Source: a virus. Taken from it: 64,000 nt of DNA. Position 1 is the stretch's first letter; the number at the start of each line of letters is the position of its first letter. The notes beneath the pieces were generated by a model, which was not told the origin of the DNA, did no database searches, and was given only the letters and a program-made list of their open reading frames with translations. Made by a program: the position numbers and the translations under genes. This document shows positions 5,129 to 52,664 of this stretch, one piece after another. Location: the IMG/VR virus record IMGVR_UViG_3300025030_000004, positions 64,001 through 128,000 of that record, one strand, 5' to 3'.

Positions 5129-5159
5129 AAATCTATCCCCTTCCTTAATAGGTCATAAA

Positions 5160-5233
5160 AATAGGGAAAGACACTCAAACTCTAAGGAAAGTCCAAGTGT
5201 CTTAATTACACTCAATCAGGTATCGATCCCTAA
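5160..5233 (-). ncRNA. Leader element L1 (palindromic-loop / anti-RBS family)
   Basis: Sense: closing stem tagggat/ttcccta plus U-run; TAATTA-loop hairpin; loop ttcctta complementary to taaggaa beside the RBS (plus 5141-5147). Confidence 0.6.
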
Positions 5234-5323
5234 AAGAGCAACCATAAAATTGTAAAAACAAAACAAAACAAAAAAAACACCTATCTCTAGATGCTTCAAA
5301 TGTGTCCGTAACGGACATAATTA

Positions 5324-7183
5324 TTAATTATCTTTTCTAACAATAATCTTAGGATAACTTCTAGCAGGACAATCAATATTATATTTCTCTTTAATGTCTT
5401 TATTAGCAGTTATCTTAACCAAACCATAACTATCCAATATTTCTTGAATACTACGTTTCCATTGAGTTTCAGAAGTATTATTAACCTTTAAATCCTTCTC
5501 TAAGACATATCCTTGTGCTTCTATGCCACTCATTATGTATGTAGCTAATATATTGCTATTATCATCAGATTTCTCAGTAGTACCTTGCTCATTTTCATAA
5601 ACATATTGAGGGAATACTCTATTAGTAAACTCCATTCCGAATGTCCTTAATAAATATTCCCTAGATAATCCCTTTAAAGATATATTATGTTCCTTTAATA
5701 CAATAGCAATTTTATTACTTTCTTCCAATGAATTAACACCATATGAGTCAATACTATAGAAGTTAGTCAATTTTTTATGCTTGTATTTAGCAGCAATATG
5801 TTTTGCTTTCTTGAGTGTATCTTCTGGTAATTTTTCATGAGGTATTTTATTCAATAAACTTAACAAAGTAAATAAAGTAACACTCTGAGATACTTTGGTT
5901 TTATCCTTTGAGTCAAATACATCCATTAAATTATTTAAAGATATAAAGAATAAAGGGTTTCCATCCACACTAAAATCTTCTTTTTTAACATTCATTTTTG
6001 CAAGATTGTTCAATGCAATAAGATTGGATTTTCTAGTTCTAATTAAAGAATATAATTGTGGATATATTTCCTTAAATTCAGCCGATAATAATAATTCAAT
6101 ATTCGTATCAAGTATTTCTATTTGTTCCTTTTGCCATTTAGTTTGTTGGAGTTCGATATTATACACTTTCTTAATAAACTCAATAGCTTTAATTCTTTTA
6201 CATTTAGCAAGTTTCTCTACTAATGATATTATTGTATATTTAGCTCCACACCCAAAACATTTATATATTTGTGTACCACTATTAGTTTCATAGATATGGG
6301 CAGAAGGAGTATCGTCTTGATGGTCTGGTAATATGCAATTTACTGTTCCATAAATATTTGTAAAATCACATAAATCAATTTTATTCATAAAATCATATAC
6401 TTCTTGTTTATTTATGCATATTATTTCCTCATCATTATCAATATTTAAAAGTGATTTCATCAAAACTATATCAAGAGATTTTATAGCTTCAATATTAGAA
6501 AAATACCCTGTAACCGTTGGGAGAGTAGCAACGTGAGCTTTCTCCATACTGATAGAAGAAGAGTTTAGTGTATTAGTATTGAGAAAGCTCAGAGTGTCCT
6601 TAGAAGTACCATTAACCTTAACTTTAATAAGAGAAGAAATTAGAGTATTTAAAACATCTTCAAATCTTACCATAATATCACCAACATTAATTCTATTTTC
6701 ATAATCACATTCAATTAAACCCTTACCTCCAAAGAATAGTCTTGTAGGATCAAATGTCACGCTGTCACTATTAGGAAATAATTCAATTAATAACTTTTGA
6801 AAATTATTTCTTATTTCAACATCAATGATTATTTCTTCGCTACAAAATACTAATCTAAATTTCTCCTTATATTCTGTATAAGAGAAAGTCTTATACCCAA
6901 ACACAGGTTTAATACCTAATTCTTTACATCTTTTTAATTCATTATTTATAGTTGTTCCTTCGTCAAAATCTAATGCAAATATCTGTTGACTTACCCAATC
7001 TTTACTTTTTGTTCCATTAAGTAATGCAGGTTTAAATGTTGCTCCATTACACAATAAATTTGCCAATTCTTCAATTTTAATTTCTGTTTGAGACATTCTT
7101 TTCTGAATTCCACCTGATTCTGCTCCACTTGGTTTCTTTGTAAATGTCTTTTTGTCTAACATACATTTAATCATTTTTACCAT
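5324..7183 (-). CDS. Primase-like replication initiator (AEP-like N-terminus plus CHC2 zinc finger)
   Basis: WVSQQIFALDFD, KFRLVF, DPTRLFFG; CILPDHQDDTPSAHIY..YKCFGC zinc finger. Confidence 0.65.
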   Translation of the reverse strand: MVKMIKCMLDKKTFTKKPSGAESGGIQKRMSQTEIKIEELANLLCNGATFKPALLNGTKSKDWVSQQIFALDFDEGTTINNELKRCKELGIKPVFGYKTFSYTEYKEKFRLVFCSEEIIIDVEIRNNFQKLLIELFPNSDSVTFDPTRLFFGGKGLIECDYENRINVGDIMVRFEDVLNTLISSLIKVKVNGTSKDTLSFLNTNTLNSSSISMEKAHVATLPTVTGYFSNIEAIKSLDIVLMKSLLNIDNDEEIICINKQEVYDFMNKIDLCDFTNIYGTVNCILPDHQDDTPSAHIYETNSGTQIYKCFGCGAKYTIISLVEKLAKCKRIKAIEFIKKVYNIELQQTKWQKEQIEILDTNIELLLSAEFKEIYPQLYSLIRTRKSNLIALNNLAKMNVKKEDFSVDGNPLFFISLNNLMDVFDSKDKTKVSQSVTLFTLLSLLNKIPHEKLPEDTLKKAKHIAAKYKHKKLTNFYSIDSYGVNSLEESNKIAIVLKEHNISLKGLSREYLLRTFGMEFTNRVFPQYVYENEQGTTEKSDDNSNILATYIMSGIEAQGYVLEKDLKVNNTSETQWKRSIQEILDSYGLVKITANKDIKEKYNIDCPARSYPKIIVRKDN

Positions 7184-7215
7184 CTCTCTTTCTTTGTTAC
7201 TCTCTAAAAAGGTAA

Positions 7216-7277
7216 ACTAGCAAGATAGGGGAGAGTACCCTTTGATGATGATTCATGAGGTCATCACTCTTGCTAGT
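7216..7277 (-). ncRNA. Leader element L2 upstream of Rep
   Basis: Stem actagcaaga/tcttgctagt; TCATGA loop (7253-7258); sense loop tactctc complementary to gagagta (plus 7198-7204). Confidence 0.65.
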
Positions 7278-7304
7278 CATATTTGTGTAATATTTCAACA
7301 CAAA

Positions 7305-7333
7305 AAATCTCATTCTTAATAAAGAATGAGATT
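7305..7333 (-). terminator. Intrinsic terminator
   Basis: aatctcattctt-aata-aagaatgagatt stem, U-run on minus strand. Confidence 0.7.
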
Positions 7334-7352
7334 ACTTCTATTGAAATTTAAC

Positions 7353-7590
7353 TTATGCTATTTTATATACTCCTTTAAAATTAACTAATTTATTAATGAC
7401 AGATGTTGATACTTTATACTCCTCTGCCAATTCTTTTTGCATATATTTTCCCGTGCTGAACCTCCGCACGAGCTAAAGCTCGGCAGGTTCTTATGTACTA
7501 GTATATTTTCCCTAATTTCTAATACTTGTTCAGAATTGAATTTTATTTTTGCATCAGATAACTTTTTCCGATATTCTGCTTCAATTCCTA
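7353..7590 (-). pseudogene. Remnant C-terminal HTH of a GIY-YIG-type endonuclease, interrupted by a mini IS end
   Basis: EYRKKLSDAKIKFNSEQVLEIRE / STGKYMQKELAEEYKVS..VNFKGVYK parallels the C-terminus of 31134..31739 (KKFDTNQIAEIRNKYNTG..VVNFKGTYK); frame broken by the insert. Confidence 0.7.
7457..7492 (-). mobile_element. Solo IS200/IS605(tnpB)-type end hairpin
   Basis: aagaacctgccgagCTTTAGctcgtgcggaggTTCA. Confidence 0.6.
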
Positions 7591-8046: not shown

Positions 8047-8050
8047 TTTA

Positions 8051-21396: not shown

Positions 21397-22161
21397 TCAA
21401 TCCACATACTTGTTAATTTCATTCCAATCGAAGCTGTATGAAGAAATATCTTCAACTAACTGTGTGTATATATTTCTTTTTGAACTATGGGTATCAACTA
21501 ACCACACATCCCCATTAGGATTTCTTAGAGTCTTCTGTTTTTGATTATTAATAAAACTTTCAAAATTATCCCTATAATTTTTACTTGTATTTAATGAAGT
21601 ATCCATTAACATCGTAGTGATAGATCCGCTTTGATATTTTTGATTACCGTAAGACACAATTGGGTATTGATTAAAGGTATCATAGGAATACCTTTGAATG
21701 TTAGTGTTAATATCTGATACTTCAAGATTTAAAAATAAGGGATATATATCTGTATCGTCAGAAATCCACCAATAATCTAATTCACAAGTTATAGTTGTTG
21801 TAAAGGCGTTGCCCTCTATATCCCCTGACATTGGACTAACTTCGTACTCATAAATTACTTGTGATTTCCCTGTATAATCTAAATAATTTAAATCTTGTGT
21901 TGAAGTATTTATTACAGTTGCCAAATCTTTTTTGTTTAAAGTCGTAATGTCTCTGCGTCTAATTTTCCAACCTGTGATTGAGAGTCCTCCAAGTGAAATA
22001 TTTCCACCTTCGAGATTATTCATGAATTTAGCAAGTAATAAAGTATTTATATCCCAGTTTGATTTTGCAGAAGATAAATCAATTGTAGTGACATTTTTTG
22101 ATACCAATATTTCATCGGCAATACAGTTTTTAAGTTGAATTAAATTCAGGTTGCTTATCAT
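21397..22161 (-). CDS. Tail/baseplate structural protein
   Basis: Synteny; YEYEVSP FN3-like strand, YQSGSIT. Confidence 0.5.
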   Translation of the reverse strand: MISNLNLIQLKNCIADEILVSKNVTTIDLSSAKSNWDINTLLLAKFMNNLEGGNISLGGLSITGWKIRRRDITTLNKKDLATVINTSTQDLNYLDYTGKSQVIYEYEVSPMSGDIEGNAFTTTITCELDYWWISDDTDIYPLFLNLEVSDINTNIQRYSYDTFNQYPIVSYGNQKYQSGSITTMLMDTSLNTSKNYRDNFESFINNQKQKTLRNPNGDVWLVDTHSSKRNIYTQLVEDISSYSFDWNEINKYVD

Positions 22162-23420
22162 ACTATAACCTCCGCATGGAGACTTAATATATTACCAATT
22201 TGTTGTAAATACAAATAATAACTAGATCCATTTACTGAAACGTTATCTATTTCTATACCATTTTCAAACAAGTGAAATGCACCATTATAATATCTAAGTA
22301 AAATTATATCACTATTACTATTTGACATTTTTAATATTTCACTTGTATCATTTGAACTATTGCTTCCAGTATCAATCCATAATTTATCTGTAGTTGGAGC
22401 TACAATATCTAATATGGGAGTTAATACTCTTGGCACAATGGTTTGATCATCTATCCATAAGTAATTTGTAGCAGGAGTAATATTACCTGCTGATATATTT
22501 AATGACAATTCTGTTGTTTGAGCAGAATTATCAAGCCATATAATAGATGTGTCAGTTAATGGTACATTATAGGACGTGATAGAAGTAGTTTGATTGATTG
22601 TGTATACATTATTATTAACACTTTCTAACCAAAGTTTTAATGTGAAATCATTTTCTATATTAAAATCACTATCAAACCAGACTCTACCATTTGTAGTATC
22701 AATCTTTTCACCATTGATGTATGAAGTATTTTCTGAATTACCGATGATTTGAACAACATTCCATTGTAAATTGATAGCTCCTTGGTCTGATATGTTTGAT
22801 GATTGAAGATCAAGTACGGATTCGGGAACGGTATATTGGATGTTGAATTTTATTTTATTCGTACTTGCCAAAATATCATCCTGTGACTTCACTTGGCACT
22901 CTATATAATAAAAATTATTATTAAAACCAGAAAATTGATATTCTATAATAGAATTAAACGTTTCTGATGTAGTTGTGATAATGGCATTGTTACTGTCATA
23001 CATTATCATTTGCCATGATTTAATTGCTACTGATTCTAATTGGCTATATTGTGCCGTAAAAAGATATTGTGAATTGTAAATAATGTCGTTTTCTATTACG
23101 TTTGTAAAAGAAATTGAGGGAGTGGAAGAACATTTAAAAAGTATCCAATTCGAAGTAGCTGATGCGTCAACTTGATTAAATGTTTGGATCTGATATTTAT
23201 AAATAGTTCCATCAATTAATGTGTTACCAGAAATAACATGAAAAGTATTAAAAGATACTACTACATTTGTATCATAAACTAAAACATTAGTCGTATTGTT
23301 ATATATTTGAATTCTATATTTATATTGTCTATCTCCTGAGTTAATCCAACTTATTGTTATTGGAAAAGTAGCATCTAAACTAATATTATTAGGAGAGATA
23401 CCACTGGGCTTCATAATCAT
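22158..23420 (-). CDS. Tail/baseplate protein with FN3-like domains
   Basis: Beta-rich; immediately after the tape measure block. Confidence 0.5.
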   Translation of the reverse strand: MIMKPSGISPNNISLDATFPITISWINSGDRQYKYRIQIYNNTTNVLVYDTNVVVSFNTFHVISGNTLIDGTIYKYQIQTFNQVDASATSNWILFKCSSTPSISFTNVIENDIIYNSQYLFTAQYSQLESVAIKSWQMIMYDSNNAIITTTSETFNSIIEYQFSGFNNNFYYIECQVKSQDDILASTNKIKFNIQYTVPESVLDLQSSNISDQGAINLQWNVVQIIGNSENTSYINGEKIDTTNGRVWFDSDFNIENDFTLKLWLESVNNNVYTINQTTSITSYNVPLTDTSIIWLDNSAQTTELSLNISAGNITPATNYLWIDDQTIVPRVLTPILDIVAPTTDKLWIDTGSNSSNDTSEILKMSNSNSDIILLRYYNGAFHLFENGIEIDNVSVNGSSYYLYLQQIGNILSLHAEVIV

Positions 23421-24568
23421 TTATATCCCTCCTTAGACAAAATTAAATTCTTATTTAAAAGATAACTTTCTAAAATATTTTCAATCTTATCAAAATCACA
23501 ATACCATATTTCTAAAAAATTATATTTGTTTAATAAAGTATATTCTTTTTTGCGTCTATCATGTTCAACTTGTTTTTCAAAATCTTTTTTTGACTTATGA
23601 AGACCTTTTTTATATTTCTCGTGTTGAACCCCTTGATACTCAATTAATAGACTATGTTCTGGTAAATAAAAATCATAAGAAAGTAATCCACTACCCAATC
23701 CTAATAACCCTTTAAATTCTTTTTGCGGTTCATAACAAATACTATTATTAACCAACCATTCTTTAATTCTCTTTTCGCCTTTTGACTTATTGCATTCTGG
23801 ACAACCACGACCAGAACTTCTGCTTTTTATTGTGGAATCCCATTCGTGTTCACATTCAAAACATTTCCACCAAACTTTTCGTCTATCATATTTAACTACA
23901 TTAAATGGAGTTAAATCTCCGTTTAAACTTGGATGCCATTCTTTTGCTAATTCTGGATTCTTTGTTGCCAAACAATTAGATATCCCAATTTGTCTACTAT
24001 CACATGCTCCACAACCCATTCCTTCTATGATTCTATTCCAAGTAGCTTTAAAAGTCTCTCCACATTTAGGTTTTAAACACCTCCATTCTAATTTTTTCAT
24101 AGAAGTTTCATATTTATCACTAATTAACTCAAATGGTTTACTATTCAATTCACACCAGAGTTTGATATTTTGAATTGAAAAATCATTTGATGGATATGCT
24201 ATTGGAAAACTTCCATGTTTTCGATTGTCACTCAACATTGTCCAACTCATTGAAAATAAATACCCAAGTTTATCTTTTAAAACTAACCTTGAACAACTAT
24301 TTGTATATACATTTGACAATAATTCTAAATTTATATTATTTACTATTAGATAAAGATTAATGTTTTGTATTGTATATGGATTCGAACAATGAATATATGA
24401 AGGTGGATATCCTTGATTTAAACTATCTAAACTCACTTTATAATAATACCCTATTTTATCTGATATGGTTATTGGTGTTCTTATATTATTATATTTAGTA
24501 TCAATTAAATTATATCCTAAGTCTTCAATAATCTCTTTAACTTCTTCATATTTATATTTTTTACCCAT
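23417..24568 (-). CDS. Zn-ribbon plus PD-(D/E)XK (Vsr-like) homing-endonuclease-like protein
   Basis: NCLATKNPELAKEWHP..VWWKC..GCPEC..SKGE..LSYDFYLP..IEYQGVQH; RBS aaggagg gives start MGKKY at 24568. Confidence 0.75.
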   Translation of the reverse strand: MGKKYKYEEVKEIIEDLGYNLIDTKYNNIRTPITISDKIGYYYKVSLDSLNQGYPPSYIHCSNPYTIQNINLYLIVNNINLELLSNVYTNSCSRLVLKDKLGYLFSMSWTMLSDNRKHGSFPIAYPSNDFSIQNIKLWCELNSKPFELISDKYETSMKKLEWRCLKPKCGETFKATWNRIIEGMGCGACDSRQIGISNCLATKNPELAKEWHPSLNGDLTPFNVVKYDRRKVWWKCFECEHEWDSTIKSRSSGRGCPECNKSKGEKRIKEWLVNNSICYEPQKEFKGLLGLGSGLLSYDFYLPEHSLLIEYQGVQHEKYKKGLHKSKKDFEKQVEHDRRKKEYTLLNKYNFLEIWYCDFDKIENILESYLLNKNLILSKEGYK

Positions 24569-24615
24569 TTTATCCTCCTTTATAATATCCTCATAAAAAA
24601 TAAACAAAACAAAAA

Positions 24616-24671
24616 GCAGGGAAGAGGAGGATTCTCTTATCGGTGAGTTAATTACTCTCACCTATCCCTAC
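24616..24671 (-). ncRNA. Leader element L3
   Basis: Stem gtaggga/ttccctgc plus U-run; ggtgag-TAATTA loop-ctcacc; sense segment atcctcct complementary to the RBS aggaggat (24572-24579) and to gaggat (24587-24592). Confidence 0.65.
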
Positions 24672-24706: not shown

Positions 24707-27700
24707 TTACTTATATTGATGAACCAAAGTAGGTAATAAATCTATGAACGAACCAGCATCTTGTGTTTCGACTTTAGCGATATTGATATTATATGTATTA
24801 ATTGGAGAAGTCGGACTATTATTAATTCTACTGAAATCTGGCACTTTAAGAAGAGAAATATTGCTTAAAATATTCTGCATATAATTTAATGGATTTGCAC
24901 CTAGCGCCATAAGATTTTTAGTTATACTTGTTGGAATAATTCCATCACCTTGGTTTAATACACGAAGTTCTGCTCCTTTTTCTCCAACTAAACTCAAACC
25001 TCCTGATGCGCTTTCCGTACCATTAGCATATCTAGGTGTTGTTCCTGCTGCTATTGCATTTCCATTTGAATCGTATTCAGTCCAACCATTTGGGCCATTG
25101 TTATAGACTATTGTGTTTCCACCAGATGAACTATTAGAACTGCTACCGGAATTTAAACTATCTGGTAAATTTGTGCTACCAGCATTTATAGCTGCTAACT
25201 GAGCATTTAGTGTAATTAATTTTTCAGCTAAAATTTTTACCGCGTTATCAACATTAGAGCCAAATTGTTCTAGCATTTTAGTTGACATATCATCAATATT
25301 TTTCCATTGCTCGTCAAAGATTTCTTTTTGCTTTTCGAAGGATTCTTCGCGTTTGTCTATTAATGATTGTTGATAGTCAATTTCAGCTTGAAGTATAGCT
25401 TTTTTATGTTTTAGATCATTATCTTCTTCCCATTCTGCATAATCTTCTTGGAGATTTTTTAGATTTTCATTTGCTTCTGCAACTTTTTGAGGGTTGGCTT
25501 GCCAAGTCCAAGTGTCACCAACGAGGATTCTTGTGTCTTTTTCCTTGGAAAGGTTGTTTAGATTTTGTTTTGCTTTCTCAATGTCGAGGAGACGTTTGGC
25601 TCTTTCTTCTTGTTCATTTTCGATATCTGCTTTCTCTTCTAGTGCATCTATCTCTTCTTGGATTCCTTTGATTTTAAGTTCTTTGCGAGTGATGTAGGAT
25701 TTTAGGGATTTTTCTTCTATGTCAAGTTCTGATTGGGCTAGTTTTTTTGTTGCTTCGATTACTTCTGTGGAGAGGGTTTTGGAAAGGTCGGAGAGAGATG
25801 TTTTGAGTTCGTTTTGACTTTGGGTGAGATCTTGGATTGCTGTGGAGTTATCAGACCAAGCTTTTTTGAGCTTAGAAAGGGAATCAAAGGTGAGTTTCAT
25901 TTGGTCTTGAGTTTCTTTAGATGAGGAATTGAATTTGGAAAGGTAGGTTAGTGTTTGTTCACCATTTTGATCAAACCAGAGGGAAGTGTCGGAAAAGCCG
26001 CTGGATTGAGAGGTTCTTGCAAATTCAGATTCTAATTTTTGTTTGGCAAGACCTAGTTGTTGGATCTGGGTGGATTGGTTCGATAGCAAAGATGTCGTTA
26101 ATTCAAGTTCTTTTTGATAATTTTTTTGAGATTTTGCTTGAGAGAGGTCTGTTTCTATTGATTTTGATTTTGTGGCTGTTAGATTAGATTCGACTTGAAT
26201 CAATCTAATCGTGGCATCGGTGAGAGATTCGTAGGATGGATCGTTTTTGGATGAAGATTTGGATGAGGAACCTGATGTATTTCCTGAAACCCCACCATTT
26301 AAATTTGGGATATCAGGAGTGTCTATACTAGTCCCACCTAAACTATTTAATTGCTCTAATAATTTACTAATTTTATTGCTTTTTTGTTGATCATAAAAAG
26401 ACTCAATTTGATTTTTAATTTCGTCATAAGCTTTAGCGTTATCAGGAGTTGGATTAAGTTTATAACGAGCATAAATTAGTTTTTTTTCGATCCATAATCC
26501 ATTTTCTTGAAGTTTACCAAGAATACCATAAGCTTGCACTGCACTATCTATTTGTTTAATTTGAGTTATTATATTTCTTCTTAGATTATCTGTTTGTTGA
26601 GAAACTAATTTTGACGAATTTTCATATGCAATTTTTTCAGCATTTTGTTTTTCTTGTAAAGCTTGAATAACTATATTTGAAGCATCTTGACTAAAACCTG
26701 CTGCTTTAAGTCTATTCAATGCTTCTTGACCTATAATGTTTCCCAATTCTTGTTCTGAATTAATAATAGAAGCATTTATATCTATTTTTTTACTATCCGT
26801 ATCAGCTAATTCAGAAGAACTCTTTTCTAACTCATTCCTAGTATCTATTAATTGTTTAGTCCTTTTAATATCTTCTTCATATTGAGAAGCTAATGCTTTA
26901 TGAGTTTCTGCTTCCTTTTGAATAGATTTAATTCGCTCTTCTTCAATTTCATTTAATTCTTCGTAATCACTTTTCATATTTCCCAACATTGGTAATAAAA
27001 TATCATATGCAGAAACCAATGTTAATACGGCAACAGCAATAAAACCAAAAGGATTTGATAAAAACGCAACTTTTAAAGCATTCATACTTAAAGTCAATCC
27101 ATTTGTGGCAACTCCAGTAGAAATCATACCTGCTCTAAATCCTTGAGCAGCAATAATTGACGTTCTAAACCAATTAGTAAGATTTGTACCATTAAATATT
27201 AATATTGCAGTTGTAACGGCAATTATTATAGTTCTTAAATTACCAAAGGTATCAATAAGATATGATAATGAATTAAGTCCACCTTTAATAAAATCAGTAC
27301 TGATAGAGGACTGCCAAAAAGTCTCCCAACTAACTCTCAATCTATCCAAGGAGGCTGCACTCGATTCTTGATAGATTGCAAATTTTTCTTCTGCTGTTCC
27401 AGCAGCATTCAATGCATTTTCATAATTTTTTAAAGAATCTTGATAATTATTTAATAAAGTTATTCCCCTATTTCTTTGAAAAGTTCCGAACATAGTGGTA
27501 GCTATATATGCTTTCTCATTTTTGGAAAGACTGCCAAATTTCTCTCCGACAGTATCCATTATTATTGCGAAATCCAAGAGTTGACCTTGAGAATCCGTTG
27601 CTTTAATACCAACGTCTGAGAGAGCTTTTACTACATCATTTATTTTCGTCTCATCTTCTGAATTAAATCCAGTCTTTTTTATACTTTCATATCGGCTGAT

Positions 27701-29086
27701 AACACTATTTAAAGATCGCCCAATAGTCGAGGCAGACTCCCGTGTGATACTGGAAATTGTTGCCAGCCATGAAGCGCTTTTTTCGAGGGAAATATTGCTA
27801 TTCTCACTTGCCGATGCCACCCGTTGTAGAGCTTCTCCAATTTCATTGGCCCCAGAGGCGGTGGTATCACCAAGTAAAGCGAACACATCAATAATTTTTG
27901 TAACACTTTCTCCAGTAGCATTAGCTGTGGCAGTAATGATTTTATTACTATCTTTTAAAGAGATTGAACTTATTTTGGCATATTGTACAATTGCTTTCAT
28001 TCGATCTTCTACTTGATTATTATCTAGTCCTTGTCTAAATAAATCAGCAGCAGTAGACGTTAGTTCTCTTGTAGTAACCGACATTTCTTTTGCTAATTTA
28101 TTATAAGATACAGCTAAAGATTCTACTTCTTCTTGTGTTTGACCAGTTACAATTCTTACCTGATTTAAATTATTTTCAAGTTCATAAATATATTTAAAAC
28201 CACTAGAAATTTGTCGAATCGTCCCGAAAATCGCCGTTCCAATAATACTCCACTGAAGCATTTTGACAGCCGAAGAACCAAAGGACTGTGCAGAATCATG
28301 TGTATGACGGGCAAGGTTAGCCATTGCTGGATTTAAACTTACCACTCGACGTTCTAATTCAGTCATAGAATTAATATTTCTATTGGAATTTGTAAATAAT
28401 TGAGCGAGTGCAGAATTACTAGCAGTTATCCTGTTTGTATCTAAATTTCTAAAATTGTTAAAAGTATTGCCAATTGCTTCAGAAGTTCCGACTGTTGAAA
28501 CCCTGCTAACTCTATCAAGTTGTGTATAGTATTCTCTAAGAGCCGAATTCGATGCATTTATCCTATTTGGTGTCAACAAAAGACTATTATTTATAGCGTC
28601 AGATGTCCGTACTGTTGATACTCTACTAATTCTATCCATATTGGCATAATATTCTCTAAGAGCAGAATTACTAGCAGTTATCCTGTTTGGGTCTACAACT
28701 CCTATACCCAAAGATTGATTAAAATTATTAAACATCTGTTTATTATAAGCATTCTTTAATGCTTGTGTTTCCATTAAACTAGCATTATATAATTTATTAT
28801 TCTCTGTTAATTTTAACTGTGACACAACCATTTTGTCAGTTTCAGCGTTTAATTTTTGAACAATTTTGACTTGATTACCATAAGAGTCAGTTGCTCCAAG
28901 TATATGTTTTTGTAACTGTTGCATTCCGTTTTCGAGAATTTTAATATCTTTGACAGAAGTAGCAGTATCTAATTTCAATTGTAATGGAGCTAATTGCTTT
29001 GATAATGATTGTATTTGCTGATTAATTGCTTGCCCACTTTGAATGGCGTTCAATTTTGCCTGTATAATAATTGAAAGATTATCCAA
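24707..29086 (-). CDS. Tail tape measure protein
   Basis: 1459 aa; TP901-like core (ASENSNISLEKSASWLATISSITRESASTIGRSL), coiled coils, VGEKGAEL. Confidence 0.9.
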   Translation of the reverse strand: MDNLSIIIQAKLNAIQSGQAINQQIQSLSKQLAPLQLKLDTATSVKDIKILENGMQQLQKHILGATDSYGNQVKIVQKLNAETDKMVVSQLKLTENNKLYNASLMETQALKNAYNKQMFNNFNQSLGIGVVDPNRITASNSALREYYANMDRISRVSTVRTSDAINNSLLLTPNRINASNSALREYYTQLDRVSRVSTVGTSEAIGNTFNNFRNLDTNRITASNSALAQLFTNSNRNINSMTELERRVVSLNPAMANLARHTHDSAQSFGSSAVKMLQWSIIGTAIFGTIRQISSGFKYIYELENNLNQVRIVTGQTQEEVESLAVSYNKLAKEMSVTTRELTSTAADLFRQGLDNNQVEDRMKAIVQYAKISSISLKDSNKIITATANATGESVTKIIDVFALLGDTTASGANEIGEALQRVASASENSNISLEKSASWLATISSITRESASTIGRSLNSVISRYESIKKTGFNSEDETKINDVVKALSDVGIKATDSQGQLLDFAIIMDTVGEKFGSLSKNEKAYIATTMFGTFQRNRGITLLNNYQDSLKNYENALNAAGTAEEKFAIYQESSAASLDRLRVSWETFWQSSISTDFIKGGLNSLSYLIDTFGNLRTIIIAVTTAILIFNGTNLTNWFRTSIIAAQGFRAGMISTGVATNGLTLSMNALKVAFLSNPFGFIAVAVLTLVSAYDILLPMLGNMKSDYEELNEIEEERIKSIQKEAETHKALASQYEEDIKRTKQLIDTRNELEKSSSELADTDSKKIDINASIINSEQELGNIIGQEALNRLKAAGFSQDASNIVIQALQEKQNAEKIAYENSSKLVSQQTDNLRRNIITQIKQIDSAVQAYGILGKLQENGLWIEKKLIYARYKLNPTPDNAKAYDEIKNQIESFYDQQKSNKISKLLEQLNSLGGTSIDTPDIPNLNGGVSGNTSGSSSKSSSKNDPSYESLTDATIRLIQVESNLTATKSKSIETDLSQAKSQKNYQKELELTTSLLSNQSTQIQQLGLAKQKLESEFARTSQSSGFSDTSLWFDQNGEQTLTYLSKFNSSSKETQDQMKLTFDSLSKLKKAWSDNSTAIQDLTQSQNELKTSLSDLSKTLSTEVIEATKKLAQSELDIEEKSLKSYITRKELKIKGIQEEIDALEEKADIENEQEERAKRLLDIEKAKQNLNNLSKEKDTRILVGDTWTWQANPQKVAEANENLKNLQEDYAEWEEDNDLKHKKAILQAEIDYQQSLIDKREESFEKQKEIFDEQWKNIDDMSTKMLEQFGSNVDNAVKILAEKLITLNAQLAAINAGSTNLPDSLNSGSSSNSSSGGNTIVYNNGPNGWTEYDSNGNAIAAGTTPRYANGTESASGGLSLVGEKGAELRVLNQGDGIIPTSITKNLMALGANPLNYMQNILSNISLLKVPDFSRINNSPTSPINTYNINIAKVETQDAGSFIDLLPTLVHQYK

Positions 29087-29819: not shown

Positions 29820-30296
29820 TTAAATTATATATCCATAATTACTTAATAATTCTCTCATTCTTTTCTTTATATAATCAGTGTCATTTAACCAATCTCTTGT
29901 TACACCAACGGGACGCACACCCTCATAATTAAACAACGGAGAATTATTACCATATTCAATATAATAAGGGATTGCAGCACTAACATCTTCTCCATAGACA
30001 CTTTCATGTTGTCCCCACTCACCGTTATTAGAAGGATGGGGCAATATTAAATCACTTGCAAAATATATCTCAACTTGATATCCGCTTCCAACTTTTTTTG
30101 CTTTAGAATACTGGATGGAGTTAATATACTCCATAGTTCTTGCATATTGAGTTGGAGTATAACTTCTGCCATACCAAAGTTTTTCAACATTTTCGCGGAG
30201 AATACTTTTAACTTCTTCGCCTATTTTATTAAGATTAATTGGTATATTTAATTCAATATATTTTAATAATGAATTCAAATCTTTGAATTCTGCCAT
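29820..30296 (-). CDS. Phage tail-region protein
   Basis: YARTMEY motif; position upstream of tape measure. Confidence 0.5.
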   Translation of the reverse strand: MAEFKDLNSLLKYIELNIPINLNKIGEEVKSILRENVEKLWYGRSYTPTQYARTMEYINSIQYSKAKKVGSGYQVEIYFASDLILPHPSNNGEWGQHESVYGEDVSAAIPYYIEYGNNSPLFNYEGVRPVGVTRDWLNDTDYIKKRMRELLSNYGYII

Positions 30297-30865
30297 TATT
30301 TTAACCCATTATTAAATCTTATTGTTTCTGCAACAAATTTTAAATTATCAGGATTAATTTTATTAATCATCTTTGGTAAATCCTTAAGGAGTTTAGTTAG
30401 TTCTTTATTATTAGGAAATTTATCAATAAGTTTATTTAAATTTTTACTTATAATTGTGCTGATTCCATTATCAACGATCATGATCTGATTAATTTCTTTT
30501 TCAATTATTTCATCAATAAAATTTAATTCATCTAAAGGAATATTATTCAAAACATATTTTAAGATACCTTTTTCAGAAATAAAATCATAAACTTCAAACA
30601 TATTCATATCACTATCATTTAAATTTGTATAATTTATAAAAATGTTATAATCTCTAGCAATTTTGAGTAACGAAAAATCTATTTTTATTAGATCATTAGG
30701 AACTTCAGTTTCGTCAGAAACCATTGTAGCAATTTTAATGATATTAGCTATCATTTTCTTTTTAAACCCAAATGGGAAATATGATTTAACCTCTATAATA
30801 TTAGGATATTCTGTGTTAAAATTATTTATTAGTTCGACCACATTAATTATTTTTTGTTCTGCCAT
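30296..30865 (-). CDS. Putative tail assembly chaperone
   Basis: Synteny; RBS gaagga. Confidence 0.45.
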   Translation of the reverse strand: MAEQKIINVVELINNFNTEYPNIIEVKSYFPFGFKKKMIANIIKIATMVSDETEVPNDLIKIDFSLLKIARDYNIFINYTNLNDSDMNMFEVYDFISEKGILKYVLNNIPLDELNFIDEIIEKEINQIMIVDNGISTIISKNLNKLIDKFPNNKELTKLLKDLPKMINKINPDNLKFVAETIRFNNGLK

Positions 30866-30900: not shown

Positions 30901-30984
30901 TTATTTTTTACCAGAAGATTCAAACTCTCCAACTGGCTTCTCTTTCCCACAAATCTTACAAACTTTAGTCTTGATTTCTTCCAT
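30901..30984 (-). pseudogene. Truncated Zn-finger/HNH endonuclease N-terminus (27 aa)
   Basis: MEEIKTKVCKICGKEKPVGEFESSGKK*; KxCxxCxxEK...F start typical of HNH-type nucleases. Confidence 0.55.
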
Positions 30985-31036
30985 CCACAACCATCTCGCT
31001 TTCTATTATTTATTTACTCGCCTTAAAATATTAAAA

Positions 31037-31100
31037 ACTAGCAAGAAGATGTGCGAGTTACATCTAATAACAGATGATCAGTCTGCTGTCTCTTGCTAGT
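31037..31100 (-). ncRNA. Leader element L4
   Basis: Stem actagcaaga/tcttgctagt (same as L2); TGATCA loop (31075-31080); agatgt-aactcgc-acatct with loop complementary to gcgagt (31016-31021) and gcgag (30995-30999). Confidence 0.7.
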
Positions 31101-31133: not shown

Positions 31134-31739
31134 TTATTTATATGTTCCCTTGAAATTCACAACGTTCCAAATGGTTACTTGTGAAACCAAATATTTTTCT
31201 GATAATTGTGTTAGAGTAACTATCCCTGTATTGTATTTATTCCTAATTTCTGCTATTTGATTGGTGTCGAATTTTTTCTTTGCTATACTAATATTTTCTT
31301 TGTGTTCTATACTATGTAGTTTGCCTTTCTGTGCATTGCTCATATTTACTCTAACATTTTCTGATCGAGGTCCAGTCATTTTAAGCCTAGTTTCATCAGA
31401 TAAATGTATTCCAGATGTGGTTCCTCCACCAAAACAGATATTATAATAATTATTATCGTTAACCGCATTATGTAAATTAATTAATTCTATTTCTAGATCA
31501 TTTAACTCTTCCTTTGAATAAGCTATTGCAATTATTTCTCTATAAAAGTTTTCTTTCCCGTATTTATTTACTGCTCGTTTTAATAATTTCCCACTGCCAA
31601 TATATTTCTTCCATCGTTCCCTAAACATTTTTTGTCCAATGTATTTCTTTCCATTAATCATATTTGTTGTAATATAAATAAAACCATATGGATCTAAAAT
31701 TTTTACCTCATCAACTTTTTTTACCCTAACATTTTCCAT
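31134..31739 (-). CDS. GIY-YIG endonuclease with NUMOD3 and HTH
   Basis: GFIYITTN..KYIGQK..YIGSG..YYNI; HLSDETRLKM, HSIEHKENIS. Confidence 0.85.
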   Translation of the reverse strand: MENVRVKKVDEVKILDPYGFIYITTNMINGKKYIGQKMFRERWKKYIGSGKLLKRAVNKYGKENFYREIIAIAYSKEELNDLEIELINLHNAVNDNNYYNICFGGGTTSGIHLSDETRLKMTGPRSENVRVNMSNAQKGKLHSIEHKENISIAKKKFDTNQIAEIRNKYNTGIVTLTQLSEKYLVSQVTIWNVVNFKGTYK

Positions 31740-31789
31740 TATAAAATCATCTCTCTTTCTTATTAGCTCTCATTTTTGGGCATATAAAA

Positions 31790-31853
31790 TACTAGTAGGA
31801 TAGGGGAGAGCACCCTTTAATGATGGGTAATTAATCCATCACTCCTACTAGTA
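31790..31853 (-). ncRNA. Leader element L5
   Basis: Stem tactagtagga/tcctactagta; tgatgg-TAATTA loop-ccatca; sense segment gctctc complementary to gagagc (31766-31771). Confidence 0.7.
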
Positions 31854-38985: not shown

Positions 38986-40005
38986 TTATAAAGCAATAGA
39001 CATCACATCCTCTAAGGACTTCAAATACTCTTCAAGAATCTCCTCAATATTATCAAAATCCCAATACCATATTTCAAGAAAGTTATATCCGTTTAGTAAG
39101 ACATATTCTTTCTTACGTCTGTCGTGTTCAACCTGTCTTTCAAAATCTTTTACTGATTTATGAAAACCTTTAATATACTTTTCATGTTGTTCACCTTGAT
39201 ATTCAATAAGTAGGTTATATTTTTGTAAATAAAAATCGTAAGATAATAAACCTCCACCAAGCCCTGTAAGACTATCAAACGTTTTTTGAGATATGTAAGA
39301 AATACTTTTTAAATCAAAAACTCTTTTACATTCTTTTTCTCCTTTGCTTTTAGAACATTCAGGGCAACCACGACCTAATCCATGTCTGTTTGAGATATCT
39401 GCCTTCCACTCATGATCACATTCTCTACACTTCCACCAAACATTTTTATTACTACCACTTGTAACATCATAAGATGTTAAATCACCATTCTTTGTTGGAT
39501 GCCACTCTTTGGTTAATTCAGGATTTTTAGTTGCTAAACAGTTAGATATACCTACTCTTTCTCCTGCACAATAAGGACAATTATGACCACGATGAATGTG
39601 ATTCCAATTCATAGTAAACGTTTCTTGACATTCCTCTTTTGAACATTTAAATATTAAATCCTTATGTGCATCTATATATTTTTCACTAATTATTTCAAAA
39701 TATTTATTATTTAATTTAAGCCATAATTTAATATTTTGAATAGAGTATGGATTATTTTTATTAACAATATCTGGTTTATGATTTCTAATTAAATTAGTAA
39801 AAATAGTATAATAGTAATAACCATGATTGTCTTTTATAATTAGCTTATCCTTATTGCCATTATAAGTTTCACTTATTAATATATAACCTAAATCTTTAAT
39901 TACTTGTTTGATATAATTATAAGAATGTTTTACATAAAATATTTTACTCTCCTCCTCATTTCTATATTTAGACATAGAAAAAAGAAGGATAGCGGTGTGT
40001 CTCAC
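38986..40005 (-). CDS. Zn-ribbon plus PD-(D/E)XK endonuclease-like protein, paralog of 23417..24568 (true start probably near 39940)
   Basis: Near-identical C-terminal half (NCLATKNPEL.KEWHP..LLSYDFYL..IEYQGEQH..QVEHDRRKKEY). Confidence 0.75.
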   Translation of the reverse strand: MRHTAILLFSMSKYRNEEESKIFYVKHSYNYIKQVIKDLGYILISETYNGNKDKLIIKDNHGYYYYTIFTNLIRNHKPDIVNKNNPYSIQNIKLWLKLNNKYFEIISEKYIDAHKDLIFKCSKEECQETFTMNWNHIHRGHNCPYCAGERVGISNCLATKNPELTKEWHPTKNGDLTSYDVTSGSNKNVWWKCRECDHEWKADISNRHGLGRGCPECSKSKGEKECKRVFDLKSISYISQKTFDSLTGLGGGLLSYDFYLQKYNLLIEYQGEQHEKYIKGFHKSVKDFERQVEHDRRKKEYVLLNGYNFLEIWYWDFDNIEEILEEYLKSLEDVMSIAL

Positions 40006-40022
40006 GACATGACATATCCTCC
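39984..40022 (-). ncRNA. Reduced leader element L6
   Basis: Stem ggaggata/tatccttc plus U-run; tgtc...TCGTGA-gaca hairpin; no clear guide arm. Confidence 0.45.
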
Positions 40023-46870: not shown

Positions 46871-48460
46871 TTATTTTTTCATTTCATTAGATGATGCATC
46901 TCTTGTAATTACTCCTGCGTCTCCTAATTCACCATCTGGTGTCCTTGGCCTTCCATTTTCAACATCTTTGCCACTCATTTGAGATGCTTTAATGATTGGA
47001 GTTAATCCATCTACAAACCCCTTTGCTTTACTCATTTTCATTTGATTTTGGAATTCGAACGGACTCATCCCCAATGAAGCACTAATTTTCTGAGGCAAGA
47101 CTATCCCATAGTCTGCCAATTTTAGAGCGTTATCTAGTCTTTCTTTTCTGCTTGAAGGCATCTCGGTTCCTTCGAATTTCACGGAAAACTTAAATTTGCG
47201 TGTCTTTCTATTTATAAAATAATTCATAAAGTCTTCAAAATATGGATACATAAAAGTAACAACTTGTTCATCAATGGATAGACTGTTACGACTTTCTTCT
47301 GCGTTAGTACGATCTGTAGTATACAACAAACGTGAGTTATTTCCACTACTTGCAACTGCTACTTTATTATATTGATCTAATATATTATTATCAGAACCTT
47401 TAAACTCAAATGATTTAACATCCTCAAAGGGAGCGATAGCAAAATTTATCTCTTTAGCCAATCCTTGTCTAACTAAAGAGGCAAATTTTCCAGCCGTTTC
47501 AGGACTTAATTGCAAAGCATCTTTTACTGAGCCGCCTTTTGTATCTTTGTTAAATCCAATTAAACCAATCAACACTTTACTTGCTTCAATAATATATTTT
47601 GACGTTTGAAGTTTTCTGACTATTGGTCTAATTACCAATTCTGAAAACAACGGCGCGAAGAATGGAACATTTGTAGCCAGTTCAGGGTTGAACTTAAAAC
47701 ACCAGAATCCGTCTGCGGGGCTAGTTTGTCTCCAATAAATATAAGAAGAATTACGATTATTAATCGAGTTATGAGGAATATATTTATTAGTATTATTTTT
47801 TAACATTCCTAAATACTGTTTTTGCATTGACTTAGGATACATTTGTATATCCACTCCGGGTTGAGACAAAAAATAAATGTAATCAAAATCCCATAAAAAC
47901 CCATAGTCCCATCTTCCTGTAATTTTACAATAATCAGCATTTAATTCCTGTAATAAATATTGATCTCCATCTTCACGAAAAACACAAAACATAGTTTCTC
48001 TACGAATAAGTTGGCGTAGAATAGATTTGAATTCTTTTTTATAATTAAATTTTTGCAAGAAATCTTCTAATATTTTTTCGTCTTTTTTATAAGCAGGGGT
48101 TGTGTAATCCTTTTTATCTGCATTTGTACAAGTATATGTTAAATCCCACGAAAGTAAATTTCCCAAAAATTGAATTTGCCGTTTATAAAGCATATCAATC
48201 ATCTCAAAATATTCAGAAAGACCTCTTAATTCTTTTTCATTTTCTTTGGGATTTAATAAAGCTTTATCAATGATATCTTGGGTTCCTGCGATAGGGTTAA
48301 GATTTATATCTCTCATACGAGCATTTACTAGATCTGGAGTATAGATGTTGTTATATATATTTGACATTTGTTTTGCAAAAGATACTACATCCCATGTTTC
48401 TTGTTCTGTAAGAGGGGATGGGGGAGAGGTATCTGTGTTTGAAGTTTTCTTTCTTGTCAT
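46871..48460 (-). CDS. Portal protein (YonE-like)
   Basis: 529 aa directly after terminase; DYCKITG, C-terminal GRP. Confidence 0.75.
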   Translation of the reverse strand: MTRKKTSNTDTSPPSPLTEQETWDVVSFAKQMSNIYNNIYTPDLVNARMRDINLNPIAGTQDIIDKALLNPKENEKELRGLSEYFEMIDMLYKRQIQFLGNLLSWDLTYTCTNADKKDYTTPAYKKDEKILEDFLQKFNYKKEFKSILRQLIRRETMFCVFREDGDQYLLQELNADYCKITGRWDYGFLWDFDYIYFLSQPGVDIQMYPKSMQKQYLGMLKNNTNKYIPHNSINNRNSSYIYWRQTSPADGFWCFKFNPELATNVPFFAPLFSELVIRPIVRKLQTSKYIIEASKVLIGLIGFNKDTKGGSVKDALQLSPETAGKFASLVRQGLAKEINFAIAPFEDVKSFEFKGSDNNILDQYNKVAVASSGNNSRLLYTTDRTNAEESRNSLSIDEQVVTFMYPYFEDFMNYFINRKTRKFKFSVKFEGTEMPSSRKERLDNALKLADYGIVLPQKISASLGMSPFEFQNQMKMSKAKGFVDGLTPIIKASQMSGKDVENGRPRTPDGELGDAGVITRDASSNEMKK

Positions 48461-50233: not shown

Positions 50234-50245
50234 TAATCATCACCT

Positions 50246-51322
50246 TCAAATCCCTTCATCATCTTCTATTGATATATTACATACTGTTTCCTTTTCATCA
50301 TCGGTAATAAATTTTAATATGTTTTCTCTATTCCCTTCAGTTGGGTCATTTTCGAATATCCCATAAGGATCACCATATTGTTTTATGTAATCTGCTTTTC
50401 TTTCATCATAAAATTTATATATATCCCCATATTCCACAAGAGGCATTCCTTTTAAATGCCTTTCATAATTTACATAGCACCATATATTAAAATCTAAAGC
50501 ATCATTTGGTCTAAATTTAAATCTTGGTAAAATGGGGATTATATCAACTTCTCTTTCGATAGCTTGAGATAATTCACTTATTGTATTTAATCCTTCTGTC
50601 AAATCTGCTTTACTTAATTGACTAGGATTTATTTTTGCGCTTGTTGCAGCATCTTTAGCCATACCAGCCCAATTTTTTGATTCTGCCACATCACCTTTTG
50701 CGGTAGCTATTTCTTCTTTAACTCTATATCTAATATAATTTAATAATGCTTCGGTATGCATAGCTGTCTTTTCAGAATAATTATTTTTAAGCTGATTATA
50801 TTTCTTTTCGAAATAATAATATTCTTCATTTGTATATCCATAATTCCACTTATCAATTATTTCATTAGTTACAACGAATCCATCCATATGTGAATTAGCA
50901 CCTTGTTTGTTTGCAAAATTATTAGCACTATCATAATTTAATTCTTGTTCTATCTCTGGCAACATTTTAGAATCTTTCCATCCTAGTTTACGGTATTGAG
51001 ACATGGCTGTGTTTTTCATATAGACACCCATGACCTCTCCACCTTCTTCAAGTGAAGATTTCCATAAATTATATAAAAATGGTCTATCAAATAATTGTAA
51101 TGTACTTTTAACTTTGTCTAAAACTACATTTCCTTGTTCGTCACTAATCATATCTTTAATGCATTTTTTGCAATATAAAATCCGACCCATTTTATGAATC
51201 GGATTGTAACTAACATAGTATTCAGATTCCTTTTTTAAATCTCCACAATTTTGACATGAATATTCTTTTTGAATTCTTTTTGGTTTTTTAGTTGTATTTT
51301 TAGGTCTCCCTGCCATAAACAC
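50246..51322 (-). CDS. Putative terminase small subunit (YonG-like)
   Basis: N-terminal CQNC..CKKC, FDRPF; precedes terminase large subunit. Confidence 0.55.
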   Translation of the reverse strand: MFMAGRPKNTTKKPKRIQKEYSCQNCGDLKKESEYYVSYNPIHKMGRILYCKKCIKDMISDEQGNVVLDKVKSTLQLFDRPFLYNLWKSSLEEGGEVMGVYMKNTAMSQYRKLGWKDSKMLPEIEQELNYDSANNFANKQGANSHMDGFVVTNEIIDKWNYGYTNEEYYYFEKKYNQLKNNYSEKTAMHTEALLNYIRYRVKEEIATAKGDVAESKNWAGMAKDAATSAKINPSQLSKADLTEGLNTISELSQAIEREVDIIPILPRFKFRPNDALDFNIWCYVNYERHLKGMPLVEYGDIYKFYDERKADYIKQYGDPYGIFENDPTEGNRENILKFITDDEKETVCNISIEDDEGI

Positions 51323-51439
51323 TTCTCCTTAAATTAATAAAAAGAAATTATAATTCAAATAACCTCTTCTAAATCTTTATATTTTCCACTATAATAATTA
51401 TCTAAAAACTCATAAAATTACTCTTCGGTATATGAAATA

Positions 51440-52558
51440 CTAACAATTATTTAATTGATAATATTCATCCCTATAAAACCAAATATATCCTTTAAATTGT
51501 TTATATTTATGCTTGCAACATAACATTATACTGTTGGCATTATACCCTAACTGTCTAGTTACCTCTCTTAAACTTCTAAATTCGTTTATATAATTACCGT
51601 CCATATCACATTGGACAACTTCCCTTTTGTTTTTATTATTATTTCTTAATTTTTCCCTAGTTTCAAAAGAAACCTCTAACCCTAAAGGACTTCCTGCTGT
51701 TGGGCACAAATTATATCCAATATTTCTTTCAAAACAATTTGTATTATCAATCCAATATTGTTCCCTCTCAATGAGTTTACTTTTATCGTCAACCAACTCG
51801 ATTATTTCAAACTTGAAATTATCTTGACCATATTTAATCCACGATCTTTGTAGGTATTCATTTTCATGATTTTGTTTGTTTAATTTACTTATATGTGCTT
51901 TCTTTCTATCTATTAAATCTACCGCACTACCTATATATATTTTACCATTAAATAAATTAGTTATCCTATATATTCCTGACGCATATTCCGTATATTCAAT
52001 TTTTGAAAAAGTATCATCATTTATATCAACAATCAAACATTTCTTGCATGTATTTTTATAACCACTAGGAGTATTATCTTTCCAAAAATTATTGTCATTC
52101 ATTTCAATAAGACAATCGCACTCTTTACATTTTTTAAACATAACTCCATTAATGTTTTTGTAAATACTTGAATTATGAAGATATAGGAGACTCATATTTT
52201 GAGAAATATTCATTCTAAAAGCTTTTCTTCTTATACTGTCCTCACTCCTACTTGGAAGTAATTTTAATAAATCATCAATATATGTATTTTCATAATTCAT
52301 TTTTAAAATTGATTCCTCTTCATTAGACCAAGTTTTGAATGATAATCTTTCTTTATTTTTTTTAATGCCTAAACTACTAGTAATATAAACTACGCTTTTG
52401 TATTTAGATTCTGATCCAAATTTTTCTATTAATTCATTTTTGCTTGATTCAATATAGTTTTTACAAATCCATAGAACATCTTCTAAACTCCAATTGTCTT
52501 TAAAGCGTGTTGACCTAGCATTATGCCAATTAATTACTTCTGTTTTTGTTTTACTCAT
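51440..52558 (-). CDS. GIY-YIG endonuclease with N-terminal Myb-like repeats/Zn finger and NUMOD1
   Basis: SGIYRITN..IYIGSA..HENEYLQRSWIKYG; REVVQCDMDGNYINEF..GYIW. Confidence 0.85.
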   Translation of the reverse strand: MSKTKTEVINWHNARSTRFKDNWSLEDVLWICKNYIESSKNELIEKFGSESKYKSVVYITSSLGIKKNKERLSFKTWSNEEESILKMNYENTYIDDLLKLLPSRSEDSIRRKAFRMNISQNMSLLYLHNSSIYKNINGVMFKKCKECDCLIEMNDNNFWKDNTPSGYKNTCKKCLIVDINDDTFSKIEYTEYASGIYRITNLFNGKIYIGSAVDLIDRKKAHISKLNKQNHENEYLQRSWIKYGQDNFKFEIIELVDDKSKLIEREQYWIDNTNCFERNIGYNLCPTAGSPLGLEVSFETREKLRNNNKNKREVVQCDMDGNYINEFRSLREVTRQLGYNANSIMLCCKHKYKQFKGYIWFYRDEYYQLNNC

Positions 52559-52615
52559 CTCTAATTCCTTCTTTCCGTATATTTTTTATTTCCGTACTAA
52601 TCATTAAAAATAAAT

Positions 52616-52664
52616 AGAAGAGAGGGTACGGAAATGGGTCATGACTCCCAAAAACCTCTCTTCC
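52616..52664 (-). ncRNA. Leader element L7
   Basis: Stem ggaagagagg/cctctcttct; tggg-agTCATGA-ccca; sense segment atttccgtac complementary to gtacggaaat (52588-52597, 10/10) and tacggaaa (52572-52579). Confidence 0.7.

Follow-up and report, generated by a model that had tools for sequence, protein, structure and literature searches.

A 64,000-nt stretch of phage DNA, bases 64,001–128,000 of the 166,652-bp IMG/VR record IMGVR_UViG_3300025030_000004 (the window in what follows), contains four copies of a real, conserved RNA structure, a three-way junction on the sense strand shortly ahead of unrelated genes, which is absent from Rfam. We consider it fairly probable that these four copies are the cis-regulatory leader RNA of a portable expression cassette, which would mask the initiation site of selfish nuclease genes. 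They belong to a set of seven elements, numbered E1 to E7 by coordinate, which a preliminary description of the window had presented as a single family. All seven were confirmed to lie on the minus strand, which is the sense strand, 30–60 nt upstream of minus-strand open reading frames (ORFs), and every complementarity reported between a guide segment and its target is present and exact (7 nt in E1; 7 and 5 nt in E2; 6 and 8 nt in E3; 6 and 5 nt in both E4 and E5; 10 and 8 nt in E7). By covariance models, only E2, E3, E4 and E5 are demonstrably one RNA family; E1, E6 and E7 were not recovered in the window by a model built from ten sequences, even at E ≤ 5 with filters off.

The junction is formed by a closing stem (P1), a hairpin with a self-complementary 9-nt loop (P2) and a 4-bp hairpin with a pyrimidine-rich 7-nt loop (P3). 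Three of the elements adopt it as their own predicted fold: E2 (7216–7277, as all following coordinates on the minus strand; P1 of 10 bp, P2 of 7 bp, P3 of 4 bp; RNAfold z-score −4.4), E3 (24616–24671, −2.9) and E5 (31790–31853, −5.0). In E4 (31037–31100) it is an alternative to the minimum-energy structure. A first covariance model (R1), built from E2 and E5 only and run over the window with filters off, had E4 (E 5e-9) and E3 (E 1.6e-4) as its best non-self matches; the same search of the rest of the 166-kb genome gave no convincing match to a further copy. The second model (R2), built from ten sequences, scored 92 bits for E5, 80.6 for E2, 71.3 for E4 and 61 for E3; at these loci, the antisense strand reached only 26–28 bits. 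About 25 homologues (referred to below by L numbers) were found in IMG/VR and metagenome contigs, again ahead of unrelated cargo.

In the alignment of ten members fitted to the model (A7), 99% of the cells are paired with compensatory changes at 14 of 21 pairs; the observed pairing was not reached by any of 500 shuffles, and controls in which the alignment was slid dropped to 31–62%. When 19 leaders were aligned with MAFFT independently of the structure (A9), P1 and P2 were still 99–100% paired, and 17 of these leaders close P2 with a G-U pair. This G-U pair and the strand asymmetry of the scores speak for an RNA of the sense strand and against a DNA site.

The judgement that the element is not a described motif has held. 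A scan with the 4227 models of Rfam, including C4, int-alpA and RAGATH, gave no match at the elements at the gathering score or at E ≤ 1 in the window, nor at E ≤ 10 around E2 and E5. In particular, neither C4 (at gathering score or E ≤ 1) nor int-alpA (RF02996, at E ≤ 1) matched in the window, and neither did so around E2 and E5 at E ≤ 10; none of the self-cleaving ribozyme and riboswitch models matched at the element positions. Readings of the junction as a hammerhead, twister-sister or pistol ribozyme were rejected by eye, as the conserved cores are absent and no model matches. A loose three-way-junction descriptor returned hundreds of matches over the genome and was uninformative. An isolated P3-like hairpin (L010, 11448–11465) lies antisense to plus-strand genes and is probably a chance occurrence.

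Downstream of P1, the leaders continue with a U-rich spacer, a first site complementary to the P3 loop (box 1, about 10–20 nt past the junction), an A-rich spacer and a second such site (box 2). In E2, the P3 loop (7231–7237, UACUCUC) is perfectly complementary over 7 nt to box 1 (7198–7204, predicted duplex −9.7 kcal/mol). Its box 2 (7181–7193) consists of an AGAAAG resembling a Shine–Dalgarno (SD) sequence, a 5-nt complement to the loop (7184–7188) and an AUG (7181–7183), which is the start codon of the 619-aa ORF 5324–7183. E5 has the P3 loop UGCUCUC (31806–31812), a 6-nt complement to it as box 1 (31766–31771) and a box 2 with AUG at 31747–31760; this AUG opens a mini-ORF of three codons, whose stop overlaps the start (31739) of a 201-aa SegE-type GIY-YIG gene (31134–31739). 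In E4, both boxes (box 1 31016–31021; box 2 with AUG 30991–31004) have a C in place of the A of E2 and E5, and the P3 loop (31053–31059, AACUCGC) has the matching G in place of U. The P3 loop of E3 (24627–24633, AAUCCUC) faces a 6-nt box 1 (24587–24592) and an 8-nt box 2 (24572–24579), the latter being the canonical SD sequence of a 383-aa DUF4379/HNH-type gene (23417–24568).

The leader alignments bear out the proposal that the guide changes along with its target, often at two sites: the P3 loop tracks both downstream boxes. Type A leaders have the loop core CUCUC and GAGAG in both boxes, type B leaders CUCGC and GCGAG. Ten of 19 leaders of these two types have U-A as the discriminating pair and the other nine G-C, with zero exceptions for either box; a further position of box 1 is A-U in 13, G-C in 3, G-U in 1 and unpaired in 2. 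Five more leaders from metagenomes obey the U-A/G-C rule, even though the search pattern permitted mismatched combinations. In L021 and L033, pairing is kept only through a G-U wobble, which would be unexpected if a protein recognized the DNA.

Three further classes have wholly different loops, each matching both of its own boxes: E3 (core UCCUC; boxes GAGGAU and the canonical SD sequence), L044 (CUCCU; both boxes 7 nt) and L084 (CCUUA; box 1 of 5 nt, box 2 of 4 nt). These separate classes are stronger evidence than the 10:9 split between types A and B. When guides were permuted among eight classes, only the identity permutation, one of 40,320, reached the score observed for guides in their own leaders; among the five classes supported by the models it was one of 120. 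Predicted energies of the loop/box duplexes range from −7 to −13 kcal/mol, with box 1 the stronger partner in types A and B and box 2 in E3. The two boxes and the P3 loop are unpaired in the nested folds of the E2, E4 and E5 leaders. The terms reprogrammable and orthogonal, under which the guides had been introduced, overstate the case: the five loop classes (CUCUC, CUCGC, CUCCU, UCCUC, CCUUA) are all pyrimidine-rich and anti-SD-like, and cross-class duplexes are predicted to be only modestly weaker than cognate ones.

The commonest form of box 2 is AAGAAAG, one variable base, GAG, A or U, and UG, so that the pairing site lies between the SD-like AAGAAAG and a conserved AUG or UUG; in E3-type leaders box 2 is the SD sequence itself. 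All 18 type A/B leaders tested end the motif in AUG or UUG, and in the 166-kb genome it occurs three times only, at the E2, E4 and E5 leaders. The first 6–7 bases of box 2 could base-pair with the 16S rRNA 3′ end of a Bacillus-type host. When so paired, the variable base of types A and B would be bulged and could therefore set the specificity of the loop without a cost to ribosome binding. The start codon of box 2 is that of the cargo ORF in E2, L058, L094 and L068. In the other leaders it begins a mini-ORF, which is 2–10 codons long except in L057 (54 codons). About half of these mini-ORFs have a stop that overlaps or directly adjoins the start of the cargo (E5, L055, L066, L061, L062); in E4, L057, L063, L065 and L067, the mini-ORF runs 17–154 nt into the cargo ORF, out of frame. 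Inspection of the mini-ORF leaders by eye revealed no SD-like sequence directly before the cargo start.

A palindromic hexamer in a hairpin loop had been noted as part of the shared architecture, and it is found at positions 3–8 of the 9-nt P2 loop in E2 (7252–7260, UCAUGA), E3 (24648–24656, UAAUUA), E4 (31074–31082, UGAUCA) and E5 (31827–31835, UAAUUA), as well as in an 8-nt loop in E7. Among the members, nine distinct P2 loops of 9–10 nt carry a self-complementary hexamer at positions 3–8 (4–9 in the single 10-nt loop), namely UCAUGA, UAAUUA or UGAUCA; L084 has UGUACA, and variants with a P2 of 9 bp have 5-nt loops with the tetramer GGCC or AGCU. This makes six different palindromes, four hexamers and two tetramers, in one loop position. 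Shuffling each loop's own letters produced a palindrome in 2–27% of trials, giving about 1e-5 for the six jointly. Symmetric positions of the loop change together (C/G, G/C, A/U), and the axis of the palindrome is offset by half a base from that of the hairpin, so that the palindrome is not simply an extension of the stem. An apical loop with a self-complementary hexamer and unpaired flanking bases is the layout by which the loops of retroviral dimerisation sites (DIS) kiss, and as there the sequence varies while self-complementarity is kept (PMC5874298). The biology is entirely different, however, and most copies here consist of A and U only and are predicted to be weak: self-duplex energies range from −0.4 to −5.9 kcal/mol, with the commonest hexamer, UAAUUA, at −0.4 kcal/mol. 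The P2 loop is conserved, with kissing as the leading idea for its role.

The homologues came from several searches. A scan of IMG/VR for the P1 arms yielded 33 loci, 18 of them matching the model, and searching the complete records of 24 related contigs, one contig of a metagenome-assembled genome (MAG) in GTDB and five metagenome contigs brought in further members. At least five true leaders were obtained by the metagenome search, which used a degenerate pattern. The one true match among GTDB genomes lies on a short MAG contig, and no host was therefore inferred. A P2-loop pattern gave six loci beyond those of the first scan, none of them a member, and an unspecific pattern for E3-type junctions gave nothing new that was convincing among the matches listed. 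L044 was reached through a homologue of the E3 gene and is the one leader-bearing relative found for the E3 protein; L084 lies in the same record, and both have different P1, P2 and P3 sequences. Upstream of two other homologues of the E3 gene (L045, L046), a plain terminator hairpin takes the place of the three-way junction, so that members of this gene family can occur without the leader. An element of 73–80 nt with the same P1 arms and a different interior was seen in ∼100-kb phages with terminal repeats (L093, G019:37700–37779, and the same element in G020, G021, G022 and G024); its two strands score alike.

The cargo of the homologues comprises GIY-YIG proteins, several HNH-type proteins, a primase-zinc-ribbon protein and proteins of unknown function. 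Across leaders with such unrelated genes, P1 is near-invariant in sequence, and the fusion to the gene varies (in frame, by stop/start overlap, or out of frame). L064 and L067 have P1 and P2 in common and differ in the whole block from P3 to box 2, which suggests that this block is exchanged as a unit.

Annotation of cargo and module supports the earlier view that the leader rides with unrelated, mostly homing-endonuclease-type genes inside the late operon: the window is a structural (late) module, with the portal gene at 46874–48460 (minus strand) and the tape measure gene at 24710–29086 (minus strand). The record has direct terminal repeats and 30% G+C, and among sequencing runs its DNA was found in groundwater metagenome DNA runs only, from which it may originate. 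Searches of GenBank phages with megablast, blastn and tblastn revealed neither a close cultured relative nor a match to the leader, which is carried by uncultured groundwater phages.

Of the gene labels given before, GIY-YIG is correct for the genes behind E5 (SegE-type) and E7 (GIY-YIG with NUMOD1), whereas the PD-(D/E)XK domain and the label Rep found no support. The proteins encoded behind E1, E3 and E6 are DUF4379 zinc-finger proteins, whose PHROG families are annotated as HNH/homing endonuclease, and the 619-aa protein behind E2 has a DnaG-type zinc ribbon (PHROG 25531). E4 precedes a 27-aa stub ORF (30901–30984, minus strand), the remnant of an N-terminal zinc ribbon, whose intact counterparts are HNH-type proteins of ∼480 aa in L057, L062 and L065. 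The E4 leader and both of its boxes are intact despite the stub, and an unannotated 189-aa ORF (30296–30865) comes next.

Taken together, the covarying junction, a loop that tracks two boxes and the position of box 2 at a start codon suggest the following mechanism. The nascent transcript would fold into the three-way junction, and its P3 hairpin would display the 7-nt anti-SD-like loop, which could pair with either box 1 or box 2. Pairing with box 2 would hide the initiation region from the 30S subunit and keep synthesis of the presumably toxic nuclease low; box 1 would offer an alternative docking site, and the leader could thus be either permissive or masked. Where P1 is immediately followed by a U run, some of the transcripts probably also end at the junction. 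Control of this kind has a precedent in the homing-endonuclease genes of T-even phages, which are subject to sequestration of the ribosome-binding site (RBS) and to terminators (PMC2988022).

Several observations sit uneasily with this mechanism. The pairing with box 2 is just 5 bp in many members, and in E3 the SD sequence is already partly occluded by a nested hairpin that involves the U-rich tract. Since box 1 pairs more strongly than box 2 in types A and B and is transcribed first, the default state could be one in which the RBS is free. Types A and B may also represent two lineages or a single recombined block from P3 to box 2, in which case their 10:9 split stands for few independent events. 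Finally, a purely cis-acting model leaves the palindromic P2 loop unexplained.

Termination is a possible accessory role of the junction and does not define it. The closing stem had been described as followed by a U-tract; this applies to E3, E4 and the type B relatives, whereas in several homologues (L058, L060, L064, L067, L084) the U run is 5–8 nt away from P1. A simple terminator scanner made no call at E4 or E5 because their structure is branched. A general role as attenuator or terminator, as had been proposed, is not supported, given this displacement and the canonical terminators that E2, E5, E7 and many homologues already have a short distance upstream. The one upstream of E2 (7306–7333, minus strand) is followed by a small inverted repeat between terminator and element (7284–7302, minus strand), as is often the case elsewhere; terminator and inverted repeat, with arms of 5–6 bp set 7–9 nt apart, were also seen at L054, L060, L064, L067, L068, L084, L094, L343, L355 and L357. 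The pair may serve the cassette as a promoter/operator or as another RNA hairpin. A sigma-70 promoter scan of the leaders gave nothing above shuffles, with the caveat that a sigma-70-type consensus may not be that of this phage. E3 and E4 begin ∼35 nt past the stop of the preceding gene. Behind E3, the stop of the nuclease gene overlaps the start of the next ORF of the tail module (22158–23420; overlap 23417–23420, minus strand), so that the inserted gene is translationally coupled to its neighbor and a strong terminator at this site would be costly.

The same data have to be weighed against other readings, the nearest of which would have the leader act in trans. An RNA of 65–90 nt, freed when transcription ends at the U run, or through processing, and dimerising through its P2 loop, might resemble c4: its paired P3 loops would clamp boxes 1 and 2 of full-length leaders and repress them in a concentration-dependent way. 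Such an RNA would account for the two boxes in each leader and for the six co-changing, self-complementary P2 loops, whose offset axis reproduces the layout of kissing retroviral loops (PMC5874298). The terminators upstream of E2, E5, E7 and many homologues, which could mean that the leader starts its own transcript, and the U run after P1 in E3, E4 and type B leaders fit as well. We nevertheless regard it as unlikely: the commonest P2 hexamer has near-zero predicted duplex stability, several members have their U run at a distance from P1, the sigma-70-type scan found no promoter between upstream terminator and junction, and each box-2 site in the genome has a junction in cis, giving no sign of extra trans targets. 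Slightly less probable still, in our estimate, is the more specific idea of a self-dimerising anti-RBS RNA, in which two junctions kiss via their P2 loops while their P3 loops clamp boxes 1 and 2, giving a cooperative shut-off as the leader accumulates.

It is similarly improbable that the leader lacks regulatory pairing altogether and serves as a structural or insulating cassette boundary, stabilising the 5′ end or terminating partially and providing homology for gene swaps, with box 1 as a stabilising, SD-like site for ribosome docking. That one leader with a near-invariant P1 heads unrelated genes, to which it is joined in different ways, would be expected of such a boundary, as would the modular exchange suggested by L064 and L067, and the PeSL promoter/terminator motifs of T4-like phages offer a precedent (PMC4122927). 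It leaves unexplained, however, why the P3 loop tracks both boxes across five classes, including wobble-compatible changes, and why box 2 abuts the start codon. An element acting at the level of DNA is highly improbable. Hexameric palindromes and short repeats, whether direct or inverted, are typical of sites at which proteins act, such as operators or recombination sites, and I-TevI represses its own promoter via an operator (PMC2988022). Yet the model scores are strand-asymmetric, the conserved G-U pairs would be A-C on the opposite strand, the palindromes vary in sequence while keeping their self-complementarity, and the symmetry axes of loop and stem do not coincide; moreover, the cargo proteins are unrelated, and none of them can therefore be the common partner. 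We thus retain cis-acting control of translation initiation as the preferred reading.

The closest functional parallels are found in T-even leaders with RBS-sequestering hairpins, terminators and late promoters, as described for I-TevI, I-TevII, I-TevIII, segB and the Aeh1 gene mobE (PMC2988022). As in these, a structured leader directly precedes a phage homing-endonuclease gene in a long late or polycistronic transcript, and an anti-SD segment is aimed at the gene's own RBS, presumably to keep nuclease synthesis low. In the T-even leaders, however, a simple local hairpin has the RBS as one of its strands, and an internal late promoter frees it (PMC2988022). Here, the RBS is unpaired in the nested folds of E2, E4 and E5, its complement sits in a hairpin loop 40–70 nt upstream in a pseudoknot-type arrangement, there is a second matching site as well as a palindromic loop, and the sigma-70-type scan found no internal promoter.

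The c4 antisense RNA of phages P1 and P7 (Rfam C4) and the CI RNA of P4 are short structured RNAs located upstream in the transcript of their target. Their loops are complementary to duplicated sites, one of which covers the RBS, and their specificity shifts by coordinated changes in loop and target; c4 is cut out of the operon transcript by RNase P. The analogy with c4 and CI that had been drawn for the elements holds as a functional likeness: in both cases a structured RNA upstream in the target's own transcript has loop sequence complementary to duplicated sites that include the RBS. It does not extend to the structure, as the C4 model has no match and c4 uses two loops, a′ and b′, for two different sites, whereas in the leader a single loop (P3) is complementary to both copies of the same site and the P2 loop is self-complementary. 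The hosts and the cargo are different, too. The leader resembles the PeSLs in that both are short, conserved modules between genes, next to variable and unrelated neighbors, and likely places of genetic exchange; the PeSLs, however, consist of an early promoter and a simple terminator hairpin and do not share the three-way junction, the covariation between loop and RBS or the conserved start codon (PMC4122927). The leader would act like the T-even hairpins and c4, yet fails the defining features of both, and no Rfam family matches it.

Homing endonucleases need to be expressed at a level that just allows them to spread and yet spares the phage carrying them. To our knowledge, restraint of free-standing homing endonucleases is known only from a few T4-type cases, and the leader would achieve it in a second way, with a different structure. 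This compact RNA module has been moved between unrelated genes and retuned via one loop and two short sites, with one of the retuned positions appearing neutral for ribosome binding. If the pairing is functional, the leaders constitute a natural set of small, matched parts for translation control, with a two-site logic of docking and masking. The self-complementary loop would add a possible layer of RNA–RNA dimerisation, which we do not know to have been described for bacterial or phage leaders; were the self-dimerising reading true, mobile nuclease cassettes would carry a dosage sensor made of RNA only, with exchangeable specificities for dimerisation and target. The family is a candidate for addition to Rfam.

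The three elements outside the family differ in how far they resemble it. E1 (5160–5233) is a look-alike with an anti-SD heptamer complementary to the SD sequence (5141–5147) of the gene 3626–5128. Its closing stem is of the same kind as that of E3, with which it also shares the cargo family; its minimum-energy fold differs from the junction and is a long hairpin with the anti-SD segment at the apex. E7 (52616–52664), likewise a look-alike, combines a closing stem with a hairpin whose loop repeats the E2 palindrome, UCAUGA; its guide of 10 nt has targets of 10 nt (52588–52597) and 8 nt (52572–52579) ahead of the GIY-YIG/NUMOD1 gene 51440–52558. The guide of E7 sits single-stranded in a junction rather than in a hairpin loop. 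Searches for relatives of the E7 protein found only distant GIY-YIG domains and no homologue of its leader. E6 (39984–40022) was rejected as a member: it is a terminator-like hairpin with a small inner hairpin, without a guide and without a match to the covariance model. The gene behind it has no clear start (39940–39980, minus strand); an in-frame AUG right after the hairpin lacks an SD sequence, and a strong SD-like run inside the frame has no standard start codon behind it.

Two further structures on the minus strand of the window were noted. The segment 36561–36613 is terminator-like, with a 10-bp purine/pyrimidine closing stem made of an SD-like and an anti-SD-like strand, an inner hairpin and a U run; it is a weak match to the covariance model (E 0.016), is nearer to E6 and E7 than to E2–E5, and has no gene start downstream. 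The segment 56541–56587 holds the only sub-threshold Rfam match, to RAGATH-18 (33.7 bits, where the gathering score is 44.9; E 0.014 in the window), in which the conserved bases of the internal loop are kept and the middle is shortened.

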